Virus record (IMG/VR): IMGVR_UViG_3300047561_000814
Span: 32,001-96,000 of that record
Reading direction: 5' to 3' (one strand)
DNA: 64,000 nucleotides
Origin: a virus
Lineage: Duplodnaviria; Caudoviricetes
Position 1 is the first letter of the stretch; the number at the start of each line of letters is the position of its first letter. Shown here piece after piece: positions 25,121 to 61,270 of the stretch. The notes beneath the pieces are model-generated. The model did not search any database and was not told the origin of the DNA. It saw only the letters and a program-made list of their open reading frames with translations. The position numbers and the translations under genes were made by a program.

Positions 25121-25194
25121 GCGGATATTGCATAGTGGTAGTGCGTAACCTTGCCAAGGTTAATGTGCGGGTCCGATTCCCGCTATCCGCTCCA
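25121..25194 (+). tRNA. tRNA-Gly(GCC)
   Basis: GCGGATA/TATCCGC acceptor, anticodon loop TTGCCAA, encoded CCA. Confidence 0.92.
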
Positions 25195-25195
25195 A

Positions 25196-25267
25196 GGCCC
25201 TATCTTCTAGTGGTCAGGATACCAGGCTTTCATCTTGGTGAGCAGAGTTCAATTCTCTGTAGGGCTA
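25196..25267 (+). tRNA. tRNA-Glu(TTC)
   Basis: GGCCCTA/TAGGGCT acceptor, CCAGG-CTTTCAT-CTTGG, GTTCAAT T-loop. Confidence 0.9.
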
Positions 25268-25341
25268 CAAAATTCTGATATAATAATATTGTATCTGCCA
25301 AATGGGGATACATTAACTTATTCGCTTGAAAGGGGAATAAA

Positions 25342-30530: not shown

Positions 30531-30815
30531 TTGAAACAGCATTTATGGAAAGACCAAGCCTTGTGTTTGGGAACGGATAACAACGCATTTTTTGATAAAT
30601 ACGAAGACCATGAGGGATCTAGAAGAGACATTGATTCACTTTGCAAACAGTGCCCAGTTAGAAAAGTATGCTTTGCTAATGGCGTTTCAGGAAAAGAGTG
30701 GGGTGTTTGGGGTGGGGTATACTTAGAAGGTGGAGAAGTTTCAAGAGAGTTTAATAAACATAAAACCAAAGAAGATTGGTCTAAAACATGGCAATCACTA
30801 ACAATGGAGGAATAG
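30531..30815 (+). CDS. whiB: WhiB-family Fe-S transcription factor
   Basis: Four Cys (ALC, LCKQC, VC) and GVWGG turn. Confidence 0.93.
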   Translation: MKQHLWKDQALCLGTDNNAFFDKYEDHEGSRRDIDSLCKQCPVRKVCFANGVSGKEWGVWGGVYLEGGEVSREFNKHKTKEDWSKTWQSLTMEE

Positions 30816-31847: not shown

Positions 31848-32077
31848 TGTATACGGAAGAAATGCGTAGGGCTGTGCATTCAATTACACCGCCTAAAGGA
31901 TTTGGCGTTGAGATTATTGACAATGAGCACTTCCTTACGGTAAAATTAGATGAAAGAAAATTTTTGCACATGGTGCATGATGATAAAATATCAGCGCTCC
32001 AGTATGTAGTAAAAATAAAAAAGGCTTTAGAGGAGTGTGCTGCTATAGTTTTAGTAACTAGGGAGGCAATAAAATGA
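31844..32077 (+). CDS. hypothetical protein
   Basis: Coupled ORF. Confidence 0.55.
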   Translation: MMYTEEMRRAVHSITPPKGFGVEIIDNEHFLTVKLDERKFLHMVHDDKISALQYVVKIKKALEECAAIVLVTREAIK

Positions 32078-40881: not shown

Positions 40882-40996
40882 CTTCTTCCTCAAATTCTCT
40901 TAAAGCATTGACATTTTTAAGACAGTTGTAACAATCTTTATTTATTAGTCTTTCCCCACAATATTCACAGAACATATGTATATCATATCATGCGTG

Positions 40997-41067
40997 TAGG
41001 ACTGGAAGGTAACGCTCCTTCTTCTCAGGATTAAAAGTCCTGAGCATCACTTTAATGCTTCAATCCC
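40997..41067 (-). tRNA. tRNA-Lys(TTT), atypical D- and T-loops
   Basis: GGGATTG/CAGTCCT acceptor, CAGGA-CTTTTAA-TCCTG, T-stem GAAGG/CCTTC with AGCGTTA loop. Confidence 0.75.
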
Positions 41068-41071
41068 ATAG

Positions 41072-41144
41072 TACCCACAGTTGGATTTGAACCAACGCTT
41101 TGTGAATTTTAAGTCCACTGCCTCTACCGCTGGGCTATATGGGT
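41072..41144 (-). tRNA. tRNA-Leu(TAA), short variable loop
   Basis: ACCCATA/TGTGGGT, loop CTTAAAA, GTTCAAA. Confidence 0.88.
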
Positions 41145-41147
41145 TTG

Positions 41148-41220
41148 CTGGTCTGGTAGGACTCGGACCTACGACTTGCGAATTAACAGTTCGCCACTCT
41201 ACCAACTGAGTTACAGACCA
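41148..41220 (-). tRNA. tRNA-Asn(GTT)
   Basis: TGGTCTG/CAGACCA, GCGAA-CTGTTAA-TTCGC. Confidence 0.92.
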
Positions 41221-41224
41221 AGAG

Positions 41225-41298
41225 TACACTAGGTAGGACTTGAACCTACGATATCCGAATTATGAGTTCGGGGCCTTAACCAACTTGGCTACTAGTGT
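41225..41298 (-). tRNA. tRNA-CAT (elongator Met or Ile2)
   Basis: ACACTAG/CTAGTGT, CCGAA-CTCATAA-TTCGG. Confidence 0.9.
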
Positions 41299-50679: not shown

Positions 50680-50799
50680 GTATTAATTATCCTACAAACT
50701 GGGAAAAATGTCAAGTATCCGTAATGAGAAAATGGGAAAAATATCATTTCAACGTAATAAGATTATAACAAAAATGTTATCAAACTCGGGGCCCCTTTG

Positions 50800-50873
50800 C
50801 GGCTCTGATGGGACTTGAACCCACGATCTCTACCGTGACAGGGTAGCGCATTAACCAACTATGCTACAGAACC
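50800..50873 (-). tRNA. tRNA-Asp(GTC)
   Basis: GGTTCTG/CAGAGCC, CTACC-CTGTCAC-GGTAG, GTTCAAG. Confidence 0.92.
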
Positions 50874-54096: not shown

Positions 54097-54825
54097 CTAT
54101 TTTTTAGATGATGAAAAAACTATGTCGCTCTTAGAGTATACACACAATCCGCAAGAAACGCAAGCAGAGCCAGCGCTTGATATAAGTGGAATGGCTTTTA
54201 AGTTTTCAGGACACTTAGCGCCAGGTTTATTAAATAACTCTTTCATATCTGCTTGACCTATTGCAAAATTCTTTGCAAGGTATGCAAGGCGTATGCCATG
54301 ATCTTTTTTAAGACTAACGCCTATCTCTTTATTCTCGCTGTCTGTAGAATAGTATAAAGATAGATTAGGAATATTCTTAAGCATTAGTGCTGCAGACTGT
54401 ACTCTAGTGTATACCCAAAACTTTATATCTGTATTGTTAAGGATGATATATTGCCATGCTCTAGTGTACTTATCATTAAAGAAGTCACCGTCCCAGTGAA
54501 TGCGAAATAGCAATGGCGCATTTTTCTTTTCACAATCTTTTTTAAAATCAGCAATCATGTTTTCTAATAAATCAACCATGGTAGGTTCATCTGCGTCTTT
54601 CAATAACTCCCAATTGTGTAGGAGGTTAGTCTTTACTCCTTTGAATAACTTTTCAAGTTTTCCCGCGTAGCAAACACTTTCACAAATATTAGTGGCACCA
54701 GGGCATGAGTAAGCCTTTCCAGCAGGGAGGCCGAATGTGTTCGCAATTGCGGCTTGCTTTCCATTTTTTGTAACAAGATTAGCAACCTTTCTATCATGTG
54801 ATCTTTTTAGTTGTGGTGTTGTCAT
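54097..54825 (-). CDS. gp88-like protein (radical-SAM-like Cys motif)
   Basis: CPGA...C...CYA, FRIHW.GDF, YTR, terminal C..C..C. Confidence 0.75.
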   Translation of the reverse strand: MTTPQLKRSHDRKVANLVTKNGKQAAIANTFGLPAGKAYSCPGATNICESVCYAGKLEKLFKGVKTNLLHNWELLKDADEPTMVDLLENMIADFKKDCEKKNAPLLFRIHWDGDFFNDKYTRAWQYIILNNTDIKFWVYTRVQSAALMLKNIPNLSLYYSTDSENKEIGVSLKKDHGIRLAYLAKNFAIGQADMKELFNKPGAKCPENLKAIPLISSAGSACVSCGLCVYSKSDIVFSSSKK

Positions 54826-55725: not shown

Positions 55726-56195
55726 TATGCGTTCTCCTTAGTAGAAAATAAAGCGTGGGCAGTAAATAATTCATCAGCAGGGATATTGTAAGGATTACAC
55801 TCACACGCCCATACATCGTAGTCTATCTCATTACCTGCAAATTGCCAACCTTGTCCGTAGCACATGTCGCAAGCAAGTATTTCCATTATGGCATTTTTAA
55901 CTTTTCCCATTAGCAATACCAATCCTCTCCTAAAGCCTTTTCAGCACACCAATCAGTATAGTGCTTATCGCACATAGTTTCAACATTAGAGTTAATCATG
56001 TTGATATTATTTTTTGTAGCGTAACAAATATTACACATAGTTTTCCTTTCGTTATATCTTTATCCTATCAGACTGGACTGACAAAATCCAATTAGACACG
56101 AAGAATCTGGACAATCTGGAGTGTGATCTTAACCACATAATGGCCCTGTGGATAACCCTGTGGAAAACGCCCCGAGGATTTTAGAACAAATGTTC

Positions 56196-56703: not shown

Positions 56704-56889
56704 TTATACTAACGCCTTTCCTCTAAGTGTGCCACTAACCCCAAGCATATCGCAAGATAATTTAACAGATACGCCAACAGGTAATTGGTTTGGATAAGTG
56801 CTTATGAATTGAGCAACCGCACCCTTAGAAGGTAGGTTGATTTTTTTTACAGACCCATTATAGGTTTCTAGTTTTACAGTATAAGTCAT
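56704..56889 (-). CDS. hypothetical protein
   Basis: AGGTGG RBS. Confidence 0.55.
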   Translation of the reverse strand: MTYTVKLETYNGSVKKINLPSKGAVAQFISTYPNQLPVGVSVKLSCDMLGVSGTLRGKALV

Positions 56890-57435: not shown

Positions 57436-57756
57436 TAGTGGCACCTTCTTTCTTGTTATTTTCTTACTAGGTAAGTCTACCAAAATTATCAGACATTTAC
57501 AACCTACTAGCCAGTAATCTTAAATAGTGAGACGCTCAGCGGTGTGATATGCCCCACAAAATTTCTGTGATCTTAAACACATTGTCCTTAAAGCGACACG
57601 CCGTCTGCGCCGAGTCAACTCGGGTTTTTTATTTCAATTTATCTTTATGTTTTATTTTTCTTGAATACTTTTTTTTATTTGGAATTGGTGTCGCAGCATT
57701 ACTACGACGCAATTCTTGAATACGAATTATTTTATTTTTTATTTCTTTTAACATTT

Positions 57757-57948
57757 TTATTCCCCTCTACTTTCTGCATCTGCTTCCCAATCAGAAAGCC
57801 AAACACGATAAGCAATTGGGTCGCAGTTAAATAAAATTTCACTAGCAGTAAATGTTAAATAACCAATCTTTGTGTCTGGATAACACTCGTCAAGCATTTG
57901 ATCAAATTCTTCTTTGATTTCTAATTCTTTTTCAAATTCTGATTTCAT
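57757..57948 (-). CDS. conserved small phage protein
   Basis: F..MLDE.Y...S..L...DP.AY. Confidence 0.6.
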   Translation of the reverse strand: MKSEFEKELEIKEEFDQMLDECYPDTKIGYLTFTASEILFNCDPIAYRVWLSDWEADAESRGE

Positions 57949-58148
57949 TTATTTACTCCCAACAATTTGAGCAAGTAATTATATCTTGCTCATCAAATAA
58001 ATCGCTAGAAACTTTGTTATCGCATAAGCGACAATTAAGAGTTATCATTTATATTCTCCTTTTAAGATAAGTTCATCTAGCATTTTTGCTAGAGGGTCTT
58101 GATTTTCATCAAGGTAGTTATTTAATTCTAACTGTTTAACAAAGTCTA

Positions 58149-58331
58149 TCATTTAGACACTTTCCAATCTGACCACATAGATAGTCTTTCTGGGTCAGTA
58201 TCGTTATACCAACGCTCAATATTATTTTCGCAAATTTCACAAAAAGTGAATTGCTCATCATTAACGTCTGAGATAGCAGACTTATTTGGAACGTGTGATT
58301 TACACACTTGGATTATTACATTTGAATTCAT
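58149..58331 (-). CDS. small Zn-binding protein, first gene of the leftward unit
   Basis: AAGGA RBS; C..H, CEIC. Confidence 0.6.
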   Translation of the reverse strand: MNSNVIIQVCKSHVPNKSAISDVNDEQFTFCEICENNIERWYNDTDPERLSMWSDWKVSK

Positions 58332-58381
58332 TTGAATTCCTTTCTAGTTTGAGAACCTTTCTCAACTTTCTTTATACTAGA

Positions 58382-58403
58382 AGTATAGCAGGGGGGTCTG
58401 ACA
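58382..58403 (-). promoter_or_regulatory. leftward promoter TGTCAG-N7-TGC-TATACT
   Basis: One of seven identically spaced copies. Confidence 0.75.
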
Positions 58404-58419
58404 TTTACTCACCAGTAAG

Positions 58420-58612
58420 TAGGACAAAATGGACATTGTGTCTTGTGATGTAGGTCATGTGGATAACTTACGCTCAAAATTCAATGTGATGTGCGTCATG
58501 TGGATAACTGATCACGAGGTCGGGCGTGTCGGTCCCCGAGTCAATGTCCGATTTGCACCATTTGTCATGTGGTGCATATCACTAATTACATGCGTGTTAT
58601 TCACGGCGTGTC
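58420..58612. promoter_or_regulatory. divergent control region with CRP-like, DnaA-box and GACAC motifs
   Basis: TGTGATGT..GTCATGTGGATAACT twice, GGCGTGTCG twice, TGTGGTGCATATCACT. Confidence 0.65.
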
Positions 58613-58615
58613 GTC

Positions 58616-58644
58616 TTGACTTTTAGGCTTATCTCTGCTATAAT
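58616..58644 (+). promoter_or_regulatory. near-consensus sigma70 promoter with extended -10
   Basis: TTGACT-17 bp-(TGC)TATAAT. Confidence 0.85.
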
Positions 58645-58671
58645 TCCATTATACAAAAAAATAAAGAAGCA

Positions 58672-58807
58672 GACTCAATGAGCCTAGCGATTAAGCCTCT
58701 ACAAGAGGATGAGCCTAGCAAATAAGTGAGTCAGAGATTAGATAGCCTCAATGAGCCTACCAAATAAGCCTAGCAATAGGATGAGCGTAGCAATTAAGTG
58801 AGGTATC
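58672..58807 (+). ncRNA. putative structured ncRNA: two hairpins, four repeated internal loops
   Basis: Four ATGAGC-NNNN-CRAWTAAG units inside stems; compensatory CTAG/CTAG vs CTAC/GTAG; strong promoter upstream; no ORF. Confidence 0.75.
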
Positions 58808-58920
58808 TCACACCACGACACTAGAGGAAAGTCCCCAAAATGTCAGCGGTATCTGGTAAGATACTAGTATCAAGGTTAATCAAGGTGATTAACTTAGTAA
58901 AAGAAAGGTTAGGTCTAAAA

Positions 58921-59082
58921 ATGACTAACACTATATATAACGAAATCGCTGATGAGTTTGGCTCATCTGCTCTATCTATTAACTATCCTGAGCCTGAGAT
59001 TAGTATTACTCGTGCTGCTCAGTTGTTAAATCAAATGGGTTTTGACAATGCTAAAGCCTATCTATTAGCAGGGGGTCGCTAA
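58921..59082 (+). CDS. hypothetical protein
   Basis: ATG after AGGT RBS, downstream of the TGTCAG promoter at 58841. Confidence 0.5.
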   Translation: MTNTIYNEIADEFGSSALSINYPEPEISITRAAQLLNQMGFDNAKAYLLAGGR

Positions 59083-59593
59083 TGACTACCTCCAACATAG
59101 ATAAGATTAACGAAGCCATAGAGGCTTTACAAAATGCTAACAAGGCGTTAGTAGAAATGTTTGGAGAGGATAAAGACTAATGCTAACAGTATTACTAATT
59201 ATCTCTACACTATCTTTTATCACAATGATATTTGGTATCGCACTAACTAACGAAGGAGTACTATAAATGAAAATCACTTACACAATTTGGCAGGGTAGCC
59301 TAAACAAAGGCAGACTAACTGCTAAGACCATGAAAGAGATCATCGCCCTAATTGATGAACTAAACGGAGGCAAGCCTACTCTAAAATTTGAGTATCTTGT
59401 CCATAAGATTGAGCAGGTAGCATAGTGAACCTAGAACTATTATTTGACAGAGAATATTTTTCTCTATACATCAATGGCTTATGGCCTAACGGAGTCGCTA
59501 TTGAAATTCCTACATGGTTACTAATTGGCTCTATTGCTTTTATTTATTCTATTCATCTAATTAGAAAAGATAAAGAAGAGGCATAGGCTGTTA

Positions 59594-59640
59594 GGGGCAC
59601 ACTATCCAGAGTGGTGTGCTCACTATTTTTTTTATTTTTT
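59594..59640 (+). terminator. probable intrinsic terminator
   Basis: GGGCACACTA...TGGTGTGCTC then T runs. Confidence 0.6.
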
Positions 59641-59880
59641 ATTTTTAAAATTACATATCATACATCTAAGAAAAATATTCAGATTTTCTCAAAATGAAAA
59701 TTTTTTCAGATTTAGGCGGGTATAGAAATATTTGCTGGATTAAGTTCTGGATAAGTAGTAAAGAAATCTACCTGTATTTCCTGTATTGCCCACTTGCTTA
59801 TGTATGTTAAAATCATTGCTGTTATAAAAAGTCTAAAGATATATTTGCTAAGGGGCATGCTGATAGTATATAATATTATT

Positions 59881-60039
59881 ATGTGCCAACACGTATATAA
59901 ATACACAAATCCTGGGCTATGCCGATATTGTGGTTTGGACACCCACGATACAGATTGGGCTAAACAAAATAAACTATACGCAGAGTACAGGGAAAAAGTT
60001 GGATTCTTCTTCAACAATAATGCCTGGTGGTCAATCTAG
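59881..60039 (+). CDS. small Zn-binding protein
   Basis: Leaderless start after TATAAT; C.H...C..C. Confidence 0.5.
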   Translation: MCQHVYKYTNPGLCRYCGLDTHDTDWAKQNKLYAEYREKVGFFFNNNAWWSI

Positions 60040-60562
60040 CCAAAATATGGTAAGATAGATATATGTACTTACTAGGACTAGAAATTCGCAAAGACCGTAG
60101 AGAAAAACAATACTCTATGAAGACTTGTTTTGGCTGTAACAAAATAATGTGGGTAGCCCAAGAAAACATAAGAGTCTATAACTATTGCGGTAGTTGCAAA
60201 TGAAACAACAAATCCTAATCTCTATCATCATAATTGGTTTGGCAGCACTGGTATGGCTATTCTAGACAACCTTGAAGACTCTATGGCAGATGACGACGGT
60301 ATGCCAAGTCAAAAAGTTACAGATGCTATCAAAGAAATGCTTGAAGATCCAGAGCACCATAAACTCATGGAACGATTAAAATACATGGAGGACCATGGAG
60401 TCTAAATATCCTATACCACCTTACAGACATACTCCAAAAGGTTTGAACATAATAAATGAAACAACTAAATCAACAAAGTGTTGTGATGCCTGTGAATGTG
60501 GTAATTCTGAAGAAGAAAAGTTTAATAAACTTATGGAGACTCAGTCATCATTTGAAGAGTAG

Positions 60563-61270
60563 TTAGTTTTTGCTATCTCTTTTTCTTTGCATTTTTCTAT
60601 ATACTCCATTTGGCATAAAAGCAGAATGCAAATTAAATTCAGTTTTGTTAAATATCTTTTTATCTTTTTCTGTTTGATATCGTATTTCTTGTTTTAATTT
60701 TTGTGATCTTTTAAAAGGAATATACAGAACAAAAGGCTCTCCTCTTTTGATAGTTATTTCTTTTCCATTTCCATGATATAAAACTTGTTGATTAATTGTT
60801 TGATCTATATCTGTATCTGTAACTCCAGGAAGTACGGACCAATCCTTATTAAAATGATAAAATAATGGTAACTGTAAAACAGACCAACCTGGAGGAGTTA
60901 TAATTTTCCATGGAGAAATTGCTTTAAAAACAAATTGTCCATCAACTCCATTAAAATTTGCACTTGTATAGTTTATAAATTGATCATTGCCATGATGCTC
61001 CCAAGAAACTAGTGGTGTGGATGTTTCCACAAGCCACTTATCATTATTACATTTTAACTTTGTATCACACCACATTGGTAGAATATAGCCTTGAGAAAAA
61101 TAATCTGGAAAAGATGGACAGTCTTTTACGGTCCCTATTTTTGTAGATGGAATATTCTTAAACCATTGTGGAATAAAATGTTTAGCAGGTCTTGGCAAGC
61201 ACTCTTCTATGGATTCTAGACCTTCAATAGTACTGATAAACTGTATCTTATTTGTTTTATTTTTAAACAT
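60563..61270 (-). CDS. conserved phage protein (paralog of 753..1439)
   Basis: P.W.K, CP..D..GY, TPPGWS, LPGV.DTD, GEP...IPFKR. Confidence 0.6.
   Translation of the reverse strand: MFKNKTNKIQFISTIEGLESIEECLPRPAKHFIPQWFKNIPSTKIGTVKDCPSFPDYFSQGYILPMWCDTKLKCNNDKWLVETSTPLVSWEHHGNDQFINYTSANFNGVDGQFVFKAISPWKIITPPGWSVLQLPLFYHFNKDWSVLPGVTDTDIDQTINQQVLYHGNGKEITIKRGEPFVLYIPFKRSQKLKQEIRYQTEKDKKIFNKTEFNLHSAFMPNGVYRKMQRKRDSKN

Follow-up and report, generated by a model that had tools for sequence, protein, structure and literature searches.

A predicted family of modular, promoter-coupled RNA hairpins in uncultured freshwater actinophages

In this study, we revisited a divergent intergenic region in a 64,000-nucleotide stretch of viral DNA (IMG/VR record IMGVR_UViG_3300047561_000814, Caudoviricetes, positions 32,001 to 96,000 of the record; this whole stretch is referred to here as the window), in which a first-pass annotation made from the sequence had described a promoter-driven non-coding RNA with four copies of one internal loop arranged in two hairpins. 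Comparison with related loci shows that both hairpins are members of an uncatalogued family of modular structured RNAs in a clade of uncultured freshwater actinophages. Covariation in three helices indicates that the fold is under selection, and the repeated unit is the loop rather than the hairpin that carries it. As to function, we tentatively favour a nut-like role in cis, in which a protein that recognises the loop sequence would dock on immediate-early leaders. The parts of the element are as follows, with hairpin scores taken from a covariance model (R1) that was built from an alignment of 74 units from pattern-found loci (A1).

58332-58920: divergent intergenic region, which houses the promoter and both hairpins.
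58603-58613, plus strand: ACGGCGTGTCG box, with GACAC on the opposite strand, 2 nt 5' of the -35 hexamer; part of the promoter module and not of the RNA.
58616-58621 and 58639-58644, plus strand: promoter P1, TTGACT and TATAAT separated by a 17-nt spacer, with the TG of an extended -10.
58651-58671, plus strand: A-rich leader of about 20 nt, from a predicted start at about 58651 (placed from the -10 position) to the first stem.
58672-58732, plus strand: hairpin 1 (72.1 bits, E-value 4.5e-17).
58672-58677 with 58727-58732: outer stem of hairpin 1, GACTCA pairing with TGAGTC.
58678-58683 facing 58719-58726: outer loop of hairpin 1, AUGAGC facing CAAAUAAG.
58684-58687 with 58715-58718: central helix of hairpin 1, CUAG pairing with CUAG.
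58688-58695 facing 58709-58714: inner loop of hairpin 1, CGAUUAAG facing AUGAGC.
58696-58700 with 58704-58708: inner stem of hairpin 1, with the terminal loop ACA.
58745-58804, plus strand: hairpin 2, built on the same plan (74.2 bits, E-value 1.3e-17).
58745-58750 with 58799-58804: outer stem of hairpin 2, GCCTCA pairing with TGAGGT.
58757-58760 with 58787-58790: central helix of hairpin 2, CUAC pairing with GUAG.
Within hairpin 2: inner stem CCUA/UAGG, closing a GCAA tetraloop.
58805-58812, plus strand: ATCTCACA box, directly 3' of hairpin 2.

The promoter, both hairpins and the four copies of an 18-mer lie exactly where the first-pass annotation had placed them. P1 matches the consensus at 11 of 12 positions and is the best site within 57800-60600; it is also the sole TTGACTTTT-type promoter in the 104-kb genome. 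The degenerate 18-mer ATGAGCSTASCRAWTAAG has exactly four sites, which begin at 58678, 58709, 58751 and 58781 and are all on the plus strand. With one more site elsewhere that carries three mismatches the observed count is five, which none of 100 shuffles reached and for which shuffles give an expectation of 0.34. A search of the window with R1 returned these two hairpins only, and on the plus strand 58627-58820 is crossed by no open reading frame (ORF) of 30 amino acids or more, as had been claimed. RNAfold, one of the checks proposed at the time, returned the three-helix fold described for each hairpin (outer stem, 4-bp central helix and inner stem), with energies of -16.1 and -13.9 kcal/mol. 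These energies are unremarkable compared with shuffles on both strands (z of -1.53 and -1.13 for the single hairpins and -1.17 for a 181-nt stretch); thermodynamics alone is therefore no proof of it, and its significance rests on the relatives.

In alignment A1, standard pairs fill 93.6% of 1012 cells, compared with 26.0-37.7% when the 3' partners are slid by one to three columns; 11 of the 14 pairs change on both sides, and the covariation score (0.698 versus 0.150) was reached in 0 of 500 shuffles. A protein-anchored alignment (A2; 65 matches, 58 of them distinct) gave 94.7% pairing versus 23.5-41.6% when slid and a covariation score of 0.696 versus 0.158, values to be read with the fact that A2 was fitted to R1, which favours structure. 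The compensatory change that had been noted between the two central helices of the window recurs throughout the family: among 116 distinct units this helix is CTAG:CTAG in 56, CTAC:GTAG in 35, CTAAG:CTTAG in 18, CTAT:ATAG in 5 and CTAAT:ATTAG and CTTAG:CTAAG in one each, and it is Watson-Crick paired in all 484 cells. In 20 of the 116 units a base has been added in one 18-mer and its complement in the partner. Position 10 of the first 18-mer copy and position 7 of the second form G:C (41), C:G (26) or U:A (6) and are unpaired in none of 73 cases.

These changes also bear on whether the repeats could act as DNA iterons or operators, or as an array of MSLANK-type minigenes. As direct repeats, the four 18-mers follow one another at 31, 42 and 30 bp, near whole helical turns, there are DnaA boxes nearby, and each 18-mer begins with ATG and can be read as M-S-L-A-N-K. 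However, the two covarying positions just mentioned change only together, and the stems between the repeats differ wholly in sequence and yet always pair; compensatory changes, paired insertions and covarying intervening stems lead us to exclude duplex-DNA iterons and operators. Relatives keep their stems by compensation rather than losing them while retaining the 18-mers, the pattern that the first-pass annotation had associated with operators or iterons. A minigene or leader-peptide array is excluded likewise, in that the 1-nt insertion in both copies maintains pairing but shifts the frame, the third-codon positions are invariant while the first positions vary and covary with the partner copy, and the AAGG lies only about 3 nt from the ATG. 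We thus give these readings virtually no credence.

Within positions 1-4 of the outer stem, G-U pairs far exceed A-C (25 versus 3), and it is because of this asymmetry that we place the structure on the strand transcribed from the promoter, in agreement with the earlier description of a structured plus-strand RNA. GNRA sequences make up 18 of the 47 terminal loops of four nucleotides.

The loops remain invariant while the stems and the flanking genes diverge. The core UGAGC/CRADUAA is nearly invariant apart from the two R and D positions, and among the 58 distinct protein-anchored hairpins each of the ten other positions of a loop copy (U, G, A, G, C, C, A, U, A and A) keeps its base in 57-58. 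The flanking bases, N ahead of UGAGC and N' behind CRADUAA, show covariation as A.G, G.A, C-G, U-A and G-C (52/56 at the outer and 55/58 at the inner loop), and they therefore form a closing pair that is usually purine-purine. In most hairpins two loops face each other head to head across a 4-5-bp, usually palindromic helix; a strict parser found 123 distinct elements, of which 99 have two loops in the arrangement seen in the window and 7 have three; the parser also returned about 14 one-loop hairpins, a number that includes spurious matches, and 3 reverse-only matches that are likewise spurious. The description of each hairpin as two head-to-head loop copies is thus exact for the window, and because hairpins elsewhere in the family carry one, two or three copies we take the loop as the unit. 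Multivalency for one loop motif, which had also been proposed, extends across the family, with one to three loops per hairpin and one to five hairpins per region. Known classes of structured RNA were considered as well. A kink-turn has tandem sheared G.A pairs (5'-GA-3' on both strands) beside a 3-nt bulge, and this assignment was rejected since the 7-nt strand CRADUAA contains no GA in 52-54 of 58 sequences. A riboswitch or ribozyme was set aside on account of the lack of an expression platform, the variable valency, the varied downstream genes and loops whose identity and separation of only 4-5 bp prevent docking between them.

A pattern of two successive 18-mers, which specifies 22 bases and for which our own estimate of chance occurrence is well under one match, was found in at least 118 contigs of IMG/VR. 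Among the matches listed, R1 has 183 in 100 pattern-derived loci and 38 in 27 further sources. For a sampling that does not depend on the motif, loci were fetched through a gene for a 242-aa protein that lies 4 kb away (54097-54825); 80 of its 456 IMG/VR relatives were kept, which gave 78 new loci, and R1 matched 60 of these. Of the 18 loci lacking a match, 12 have less than 2.3 kb of upstream DNA, two (L181 and L184) carry single-loop versions that R1 missed, and in four nothing was found. Given enough upstream DNA, the element is near-universal in the clade, and a negative set for comparison of gene content did not emerge.

The first-pass annotation did not recognise the family, and neither did our searches of catalogues. 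An E-value scan of 57800-59600 against Rfam 15 gave three chance-level matches, the best over the hairpins being PVT1_7 (17.4 bits against a gathering cut-off of 80), and a gathering-threshold scan of the window and the loci of four relatives returned tRNAs only. A blastn search with 801 nt found no match in 50,697 deposited phage records, and one 69-nt hairpin gave 9 partial chance matches among deposited phages, none of which covers 80% of it. In one genome for each of 185,579 prokaryote species the two-loop pattern matched nine times and was confirmed in only four cases (the single-loop form was not searched); those confirmed by R1 are short contigs of metagenome-assembled genomes (MAGs; L121, L124, L125 and L126), L122 is marginal (23.7 bits), and L120, L123, L127 and L128 have no match. 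As the four confirmed contigs are binned to unrelated phyla, they are most simply explained as phage fragments, and they point to no particular host. Neither the 18-mer nor its core, written in DNA or RNA letters, was found in a text search of the available literature, and the main text of a survey of more than 10,000 candidate structured viral RNAs is silent on promoters, tandem arrangement and internal loops, although its supplementary tables may list the motif unnamed (PMC10690425). A WhiB-family gene in the window (30546-30719, plus strand; 48.4 bits, cut-off 23.6) and a large terminase that is closest, at 54% identity, to those of Streptomyces and Gordonia phages identify the virus as an actinophage, as had been assumed. 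A DNA run in which 96% of the sampled words were found carries the label freshwater metagenome and may be the source sample.

Coupling to a promoter, the other central claim of the first-pass annotation, is a general property of the family. In 110 of 149 distinct contexts (74%) the stem is preceded by a TTGA[CT]-N16-18-TAnnnT site whose end lies 20-39 nt away, compared with 194 of 20,000 random positions (1%) in the same loci, and a second promoter type lies 10-40 nt before the stem in another 20 contexts. The hairpins begin about 15-30 nt after the predicted transcript start of these sigma-70/SigA-like promoters, and an A-rich leader comparable to that in the window is present in relatives (AATTAAATA). 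Each promoter module opens with ATCACA followed by an 11-mer (ACGGCGTGTCG or its complement). The ATCACA box is also found in relatives ahead of first promoters that have no hairpin upstream; because it opens the upstream module of the next promoter in relatives, the ATCTCACA box behind hairpin 2 probably belongs to the following unit and lies outside the RNA fold. The 11-mer itself (ACGGCGTGTCG/CGACACGCCGT) contains GACAC, occurs in either orientation a few bases 5' of the -35 hexamer in most promoters of the family, and is found in the window at 58603-58613, 58523-58531 and 57594-57604.

No U-tract follows any hairpin of the family. An intrinsic terminator was accordingly rejected: the stems of 4-6 bp are broken by 5+7-nt loops and are followed by AAAUCACA-type sequence with no T-run. 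For 147 hairpins the next feature on the 3' side is a TGTCNG-N10-TAnnnT-type promoter (43), a ribosome-binding site (RBS) with ATG (42), a consensus P1 (35) or another loop (23). Because a U-tract is missing and an RBS with ATG or a promoter lies downstream, the hairpins look like part of early leader transcripts, and here we depart from the first-pass annotation, which had described a free-standing non-coding RNA: 42 of 147 hairpins lead directly to an RBS and ATG, and most others to another promoter. Downstream and on the opposite arm, the region holds the following features.

58841-58862, plus strand: P2, a promoter of the second type, TGTCAG, 10 nt, TAAGAT.
58403-58382, minus strand: mirror copy of P2 for the leftward operon.
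58921-59082, plus strand: first rightward gene, 53 aa, no known family, with the RBS AAAGAAAGG at 58900-58908; a longer version of the ORF, from 58840, would begin within the P2 motif.
59595-59631, plus strand: first site in the rightward unit that resembles a terminator, with a T-run behind an 11-bp stem, located after four small genes and 790 nt downstream.

Transcripts from P1 would run through P2 (58841-58862) into the four tiny genes and on to the terminator-like site. Evidence for such transcripts was sought in metatranscriptomes. Assembled contigs of four runs, X1, X3, X23 and X24, were compared with the region, and bins that they leave bare are not taken as evidence. RNA library X23 contains a 205-nt contig over 58655-58843, and it also holds contigs of single-hairpin relatives; in X24 there is depth in the hairpin bins, yet no listed piece crosses the hairpins. 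Both libraries cover 24-25 of 30 bins of a 9-kb stretch, and in view of this broad cover carry-over of DNA is possible. The transcript expected by the first-pass annotation is thus backed by one contig of one library, which with this proviso is a weak hint.

The number of hairpins per region varies from one to five, and in many relatives hairpins are present on both arms of the divergent early region. In one relative, which upstream of the promoter hardly differs from the window (L101, 8560-9140, minus strand), five tandem hairpins stand behind three tandem consensus promoters and are followed by a small zinc-ribbon-like gene; in this array the cassette has evidently been duplicated recently. 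A strict P2 lies within 80 nt downstream of 80 of 186 hairpins, at exactly 9-11 nt in 60 of them, and some hairpins lie 13-50 nt before an RBS with no P2 nearby. The P2 class (TGTC[AGT]G-N10-TAnnnT) has no -35 hexamer, often has CCCC-AAAA ahead, and is represented by 1165 strict copies in the fetched loci (0.24 per kb-strand). P2-type promoters are usually preceded by a stem with a C-rich 3' arm, and where the large hairpin is not adjacent a small GGGG-N4-5-CCCC hairpin (58823-58835 in the window, and in relatives) abuts the AAAATGTCAG of P2.

On the other side of P1, two perfect DnaA boxes (TTATCCACA; 58458-58466 and 58499-58507, minus strand) lie 110-190 bp upstream of the hairpin promoter, and a third lies at 56147-56155. 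Each of the first two is embedded in a 25-nt direct repeat (58444-58468 and 58485-58509) with a CRP-like TGTGA-N6-TCA half-palindrome. In the loci of 118 relatives the density of perfect DnaA boxes within 600 bp of hairpins is 3.4 times that of the remaining DNA (0.58 versus 0.17 per kb), and 66 loci have one there. These boxes may mark an origin or a DnaA-linked control of the early region.

The DnaA boxes and the P2 promoters are relevant to a reading in which the structure would form in single-stranded DNA (ssDNA): on the non-template strand during transcription from P1, in replication intermediates or an origin by the DnaA boxes, or as a local signal for a PafBC-type promoter. The TGTCNG-N10-TAnnnT sequence appears to share its geometry with the mycobacterial PafBC (RecA-NDp) damage promoter. 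The non-template strand has the sequence of the RNA, so that covariation and G:T bias cannot separate the two; moreover, the DnaA boxes are positioned and enriched as just described, such a promoter begins 9-11 nt past the end of 60 of 186 hairpins, and PafBC is switched on by ssDNA (PMC11804915). Nevertheless, we consider an ssDNA structure highly improbable. The hairpins and the promoter to which they are tightly coupled share a strand, and their GNRA tetraloops, A.G closing pairs and many G-U pairs are typical of RNA. Some hairpins precede an RBS with no P2 nearby, and the loops, at 5-8 nt, fall short of the ssDNA ligands of 11-12 nt with which PafBC was studied (PMC11804915). That the RNA itself activates host PafBC at the adjacent promoter would fit the same 60 hairpins, but a 12-nt single-stranded RNA failed to activate M. 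smegmatis PafBC in vitro (PMC11804915), and we regard this as remote.

Since the loops are near-invariant beside helices that change freely, they would be expected to make a specific contact, most simply with a protein. We therefore return to the nut-like docking site, towards which we lean because the hairpins are co-transcribed with the downstream DNA, occur on both early arms and precede the genes of a 61-aa protein family. According to this model, a sequence-specific factor would dock on the invariant loops, the likeliest candidate being a small and possibly dimeric protein, and the hairpins would act in cis by marking the transcripts begun at P1-type promoters. The bound factor would then alter the fate of the polymerase, allowing read-through of the first terminators, or alternatively it would alter the stability or translation of the leader mRNA. 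From their position and charge, two early proteins can be put forward as partners, although these are guesses.

56704-56889, minus strand: gene for a 61-aa basic protein, the most widespread early gene (87 of 119 loci).
57629-57754, minus strand: gene for a 41-aa Arg/Lys-rich ELRRSNAA protein (49 of 119 loci, net charge about +8 to +13).

The 61-aa family stands directly behind the hairpin in 35 of 78 contexts (45%), compared with 0-22% for the other 39 families. The AlphaFold model of this protein is beta-beta-alpha-beta-beta, with a predicted local distance difference test (pLDDT) score of 86, and the weak rows of its PDB search include the small phage inhibitors AcrIF9 and Dmd. The 41-aa protein, which has the conserved core ELRRLxELRRSNAA(S/T)xxPxKKxYxRK and whose sole match is phrog_11957, a PHROG of function unknown, resembles in its composition an arginine-rich RNA- or DNA-binding peptide.

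Several observations weigh against a nut-like site. The predicted folding energies are, as noted, unremarkable; support for transcription comes from assembled contigs of RNA libraries that possibly contain DNA; 19 of the 149 contexts have no recognisable promoter nearby, some of these hairpins lying just past a stop codon; and the long leftward operon of the window has no hairpin in the R1 search. While a single nut or put site per operon would suffice, there are one to five hairpins per region, and what follows 101 of 147 hairpins is another promoter or hairpin and not a gene. Polymerases that start from a second promoter would escape a mark made in cis, which fits a dosage-driven, trans-acting RNA better. 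As for the candidate partners, the 61-aa protein has no Pfam or PHROG match, and a PDB search with its model found no similar fold at E <= 0.001; for ten early proteins nothing in Pfam exceeded the cut-off and the only PHROGs matched are of function unknown, so that no RNA-binding family is found among the candidates.

A trans-acting RNA of this kind could be a multivalent decoy or sponge, as the first-pass annotation had proposed. An abundant immediate-early RNA, whether free or within leaders, would carry 2-10 loop copies and soak up an RNA-binding protein of the host, for instance a nuclease, a defence sensor or a regulator. It would account for a copy number that varies among close relatives (two hairpins in the window and five in L101) and for one to three loops per hairpin, for the 101 of 147 hairpins in gene-less promoter units, for loops that stay constant while stems and flanking genes diverge, and for the use of the sole TTGACTTTT-type promoter of the genome to drive the hairpins. 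We nonetheless find this explanation doubtful. There is no hairpin terminator to release a discrete RNA, and in bacterial genomes the two-loop motif occurs only on the four short, probably phage-derived MAG contigs, so that no mimicked host RNA is known (mimicry of a single loop was not searched). In addition, the classic targets of sponges, CsrA, Hfq and ProQ, are to our knowledge not known in Actinobacteria. A bolder form of the idea, in which the RNA, made in quantity by host polymerase and carrying 2-10 copies of a new 12-base structural module, would be an immediate-early weapon that captures a conserved actinobacterial protein (a ribonuclease, defence sensor or transcription factor, for example) before any phage protein exists, seems rather unlikely to us. 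A search of the phage with the ToxN family PF13958 found no match, which is weak evidence as the control genomes were silent too.

The hairpins could also be processing or stability elements, serving as a site for, or a barrier to, a ribonuclease (RNase III, E or J) that separates or protects segments of early transcripts. Early RNA of phage T7 carries RNase III sites, and the intergenic position of the hairpins within early transcripts, sometimes just past a stop codon, the pseudo-twofold symmetry that would suit a dimeric enzyme, and the A-rich single strands (CAAAUAA) displayed by the loops would all be consistent with this idea. On the other hand, twelve loop bases are conserved, far beyond the needs of known RNase III or 5'-stabiliser elements, the unpaired leader of about 20 nt ahead of the hairpin is poorly suited to protection of a 5' end, and the occurrence of one-, two- and three-loop forms with spacings of 4 or 5 bp does not fit one fixed dimer geometry. 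The phage genome was found to have no gene for RNase III, a dsRBD protein or L7Ae. All in all, we consider a processing element unlikely.

Two further features of the window were noted. A match to the freshwater-2 RNA of Rfam at 58046-58093 (minus strand; 23.4 bits against a gathering cut-off of 49.9, E-value 0.78) covers a small hairpin and an RBS and is probably due to chance. Seven tRNA genes (Gly, Glu, Lys, Leu, Asn, Met and Asp) are located within 25121-25268, 40996-41298 and 50799-50873.

Freshwater actinobacteria and their phages are abundant and largely uncultured, and the start of infection in such phages is almost uncharted. The comparative signal described here is clear, combining twelve near-invariant bases per loop, freely changing helices, modular repeats and a link, in several hundred phage contigs, to the strongest host-type promoters. 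Such conservation is usually the sign of a specific contact, be it of RNA with protein or of RNA with RNA, which makes the motif a handle for the capture of its partner. Should the partner be a phage protein, the hairpins would be part of a nut-like early control system in actinophages; should it be a host protein, they would be an RNA decoy made before any phage protein. If the RNA is indeed a weapon, it would be the first RNA-based takeover or anti-defence factor for actinophages, and the variation in copy number would be the trace of an arms race over dosage. The short hairpin also provides a simple marker of this phage clade in metagenomes.

Among known systems, the closest in layout are the nut sites of phage lambda and the put sites of HK022, which are likewise short structured RNAs located just behind divergent phage early promoters and transcribed by the host polymerase. 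In lambda nut, the boxB hairpin is bound by N, a small arginine-rich phage protein, and boxA serves the Nus factors. Beside the hairpins studied here we found no conserved boxA-like element, apart from the ATCACA box of the next promoter. Furthermore, nut and put occur once per operon, whereas the phages of this clade have one to five hairpins, each with one to three copies of one loop and often in tandem promoter cassettes. The likeness to put, which suppresses termination in cis through contact with the beta' zinc-binding domain of RNA polymerase, raises the idea that the hairpin, while nascent, contacts the polymerase directly and, without a protein factor, confers resistance to pausing and termination. 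This would fit the genomic syntax, which is that of the approximately 70-nt HK022 put RNAs behind divergent early promoters (PMC9378689), a length similar to that of one hairpin here, and the terminator-like site downstream in the window. However, put consists of two different stem-loops that form one V-shaped unit with a triplex and has no repeated identical module (PMC9378689), and comparison by description reveals no likeness to our hairpins in sequence or architecture. As nothing in put corresponds to the variable valency or to the tandem promoter cassettes, and 19 contexts lack a promoter nearby, a put-like RNA seems quite improbable to us, more so than a processing element.

With the CsrB/RsmZ sponges and the ToxI and phage pseudo-ToxI arrays the element shares, in the features by which these are generally known, a short motif repeated within a transcript, a strong promoter and a varying copy number, an arrangement that suits multivalent capture of a protein. 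ToxI arrays adjoin a ToxN-family gene and are built of tandem 34-36-nt repeats that hardly differ from one another. The motif described here is in contrast an internal loop framed by covarying helices, and not a GGA hairpin loop or an identical tandem 34-36-nt repeat; the hairpins have no terminator, and the units differ in their stems and share only the loops.

A third parallel is offered by the PeSL cassettes of T4-type phages, in which, according to PMC2839356, a repeated sigma-70-like early promoter is combined with a stem-loop in a plastic early region and the numbers differ among close relatives. In the same source the differences in copy number are taken to suggest recombination between cassettes (PMC2839356). 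The PeSL stem-loops are terminators rich in G/C; they lie over or ahead of the promoter, and their loop sequences are not conserved (PMC2839356), while the hairpin of the actinophages is transcribed 3' of its promoter, lacks a U-tract and has an internal loop as its conserved part. The element therefore has the defining features of none of nut, put, PeSL, the CsrB-type sponges and ToxI.

At the level of the loop itself, there is a likeness to the UAA/GAN motif, a GNRA-like loop that makes A-minor contacts and has the consensus ccUAAg/uGAagg (PMC2615604). In our loop UAA followed by G (CAAAUAAG) faces U-GA-N (UGAGC), with the same letters and polarity as in that consensus (PMC2615604) and with both sides invariant. 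The UAA/GAN consensus as given there is closed by Watson-Crick pairs on both sides (PMC2615604), whereas in our loop the inner side has four additional bases, CAAA, opposite one C, and on the outer side the closing pair is the covarying N:N' rather than g-u. We therefore regard the likeness as a resemblance only, and the loop may be a new recurrent RNA three-dimensional module related to UAA/GAN.

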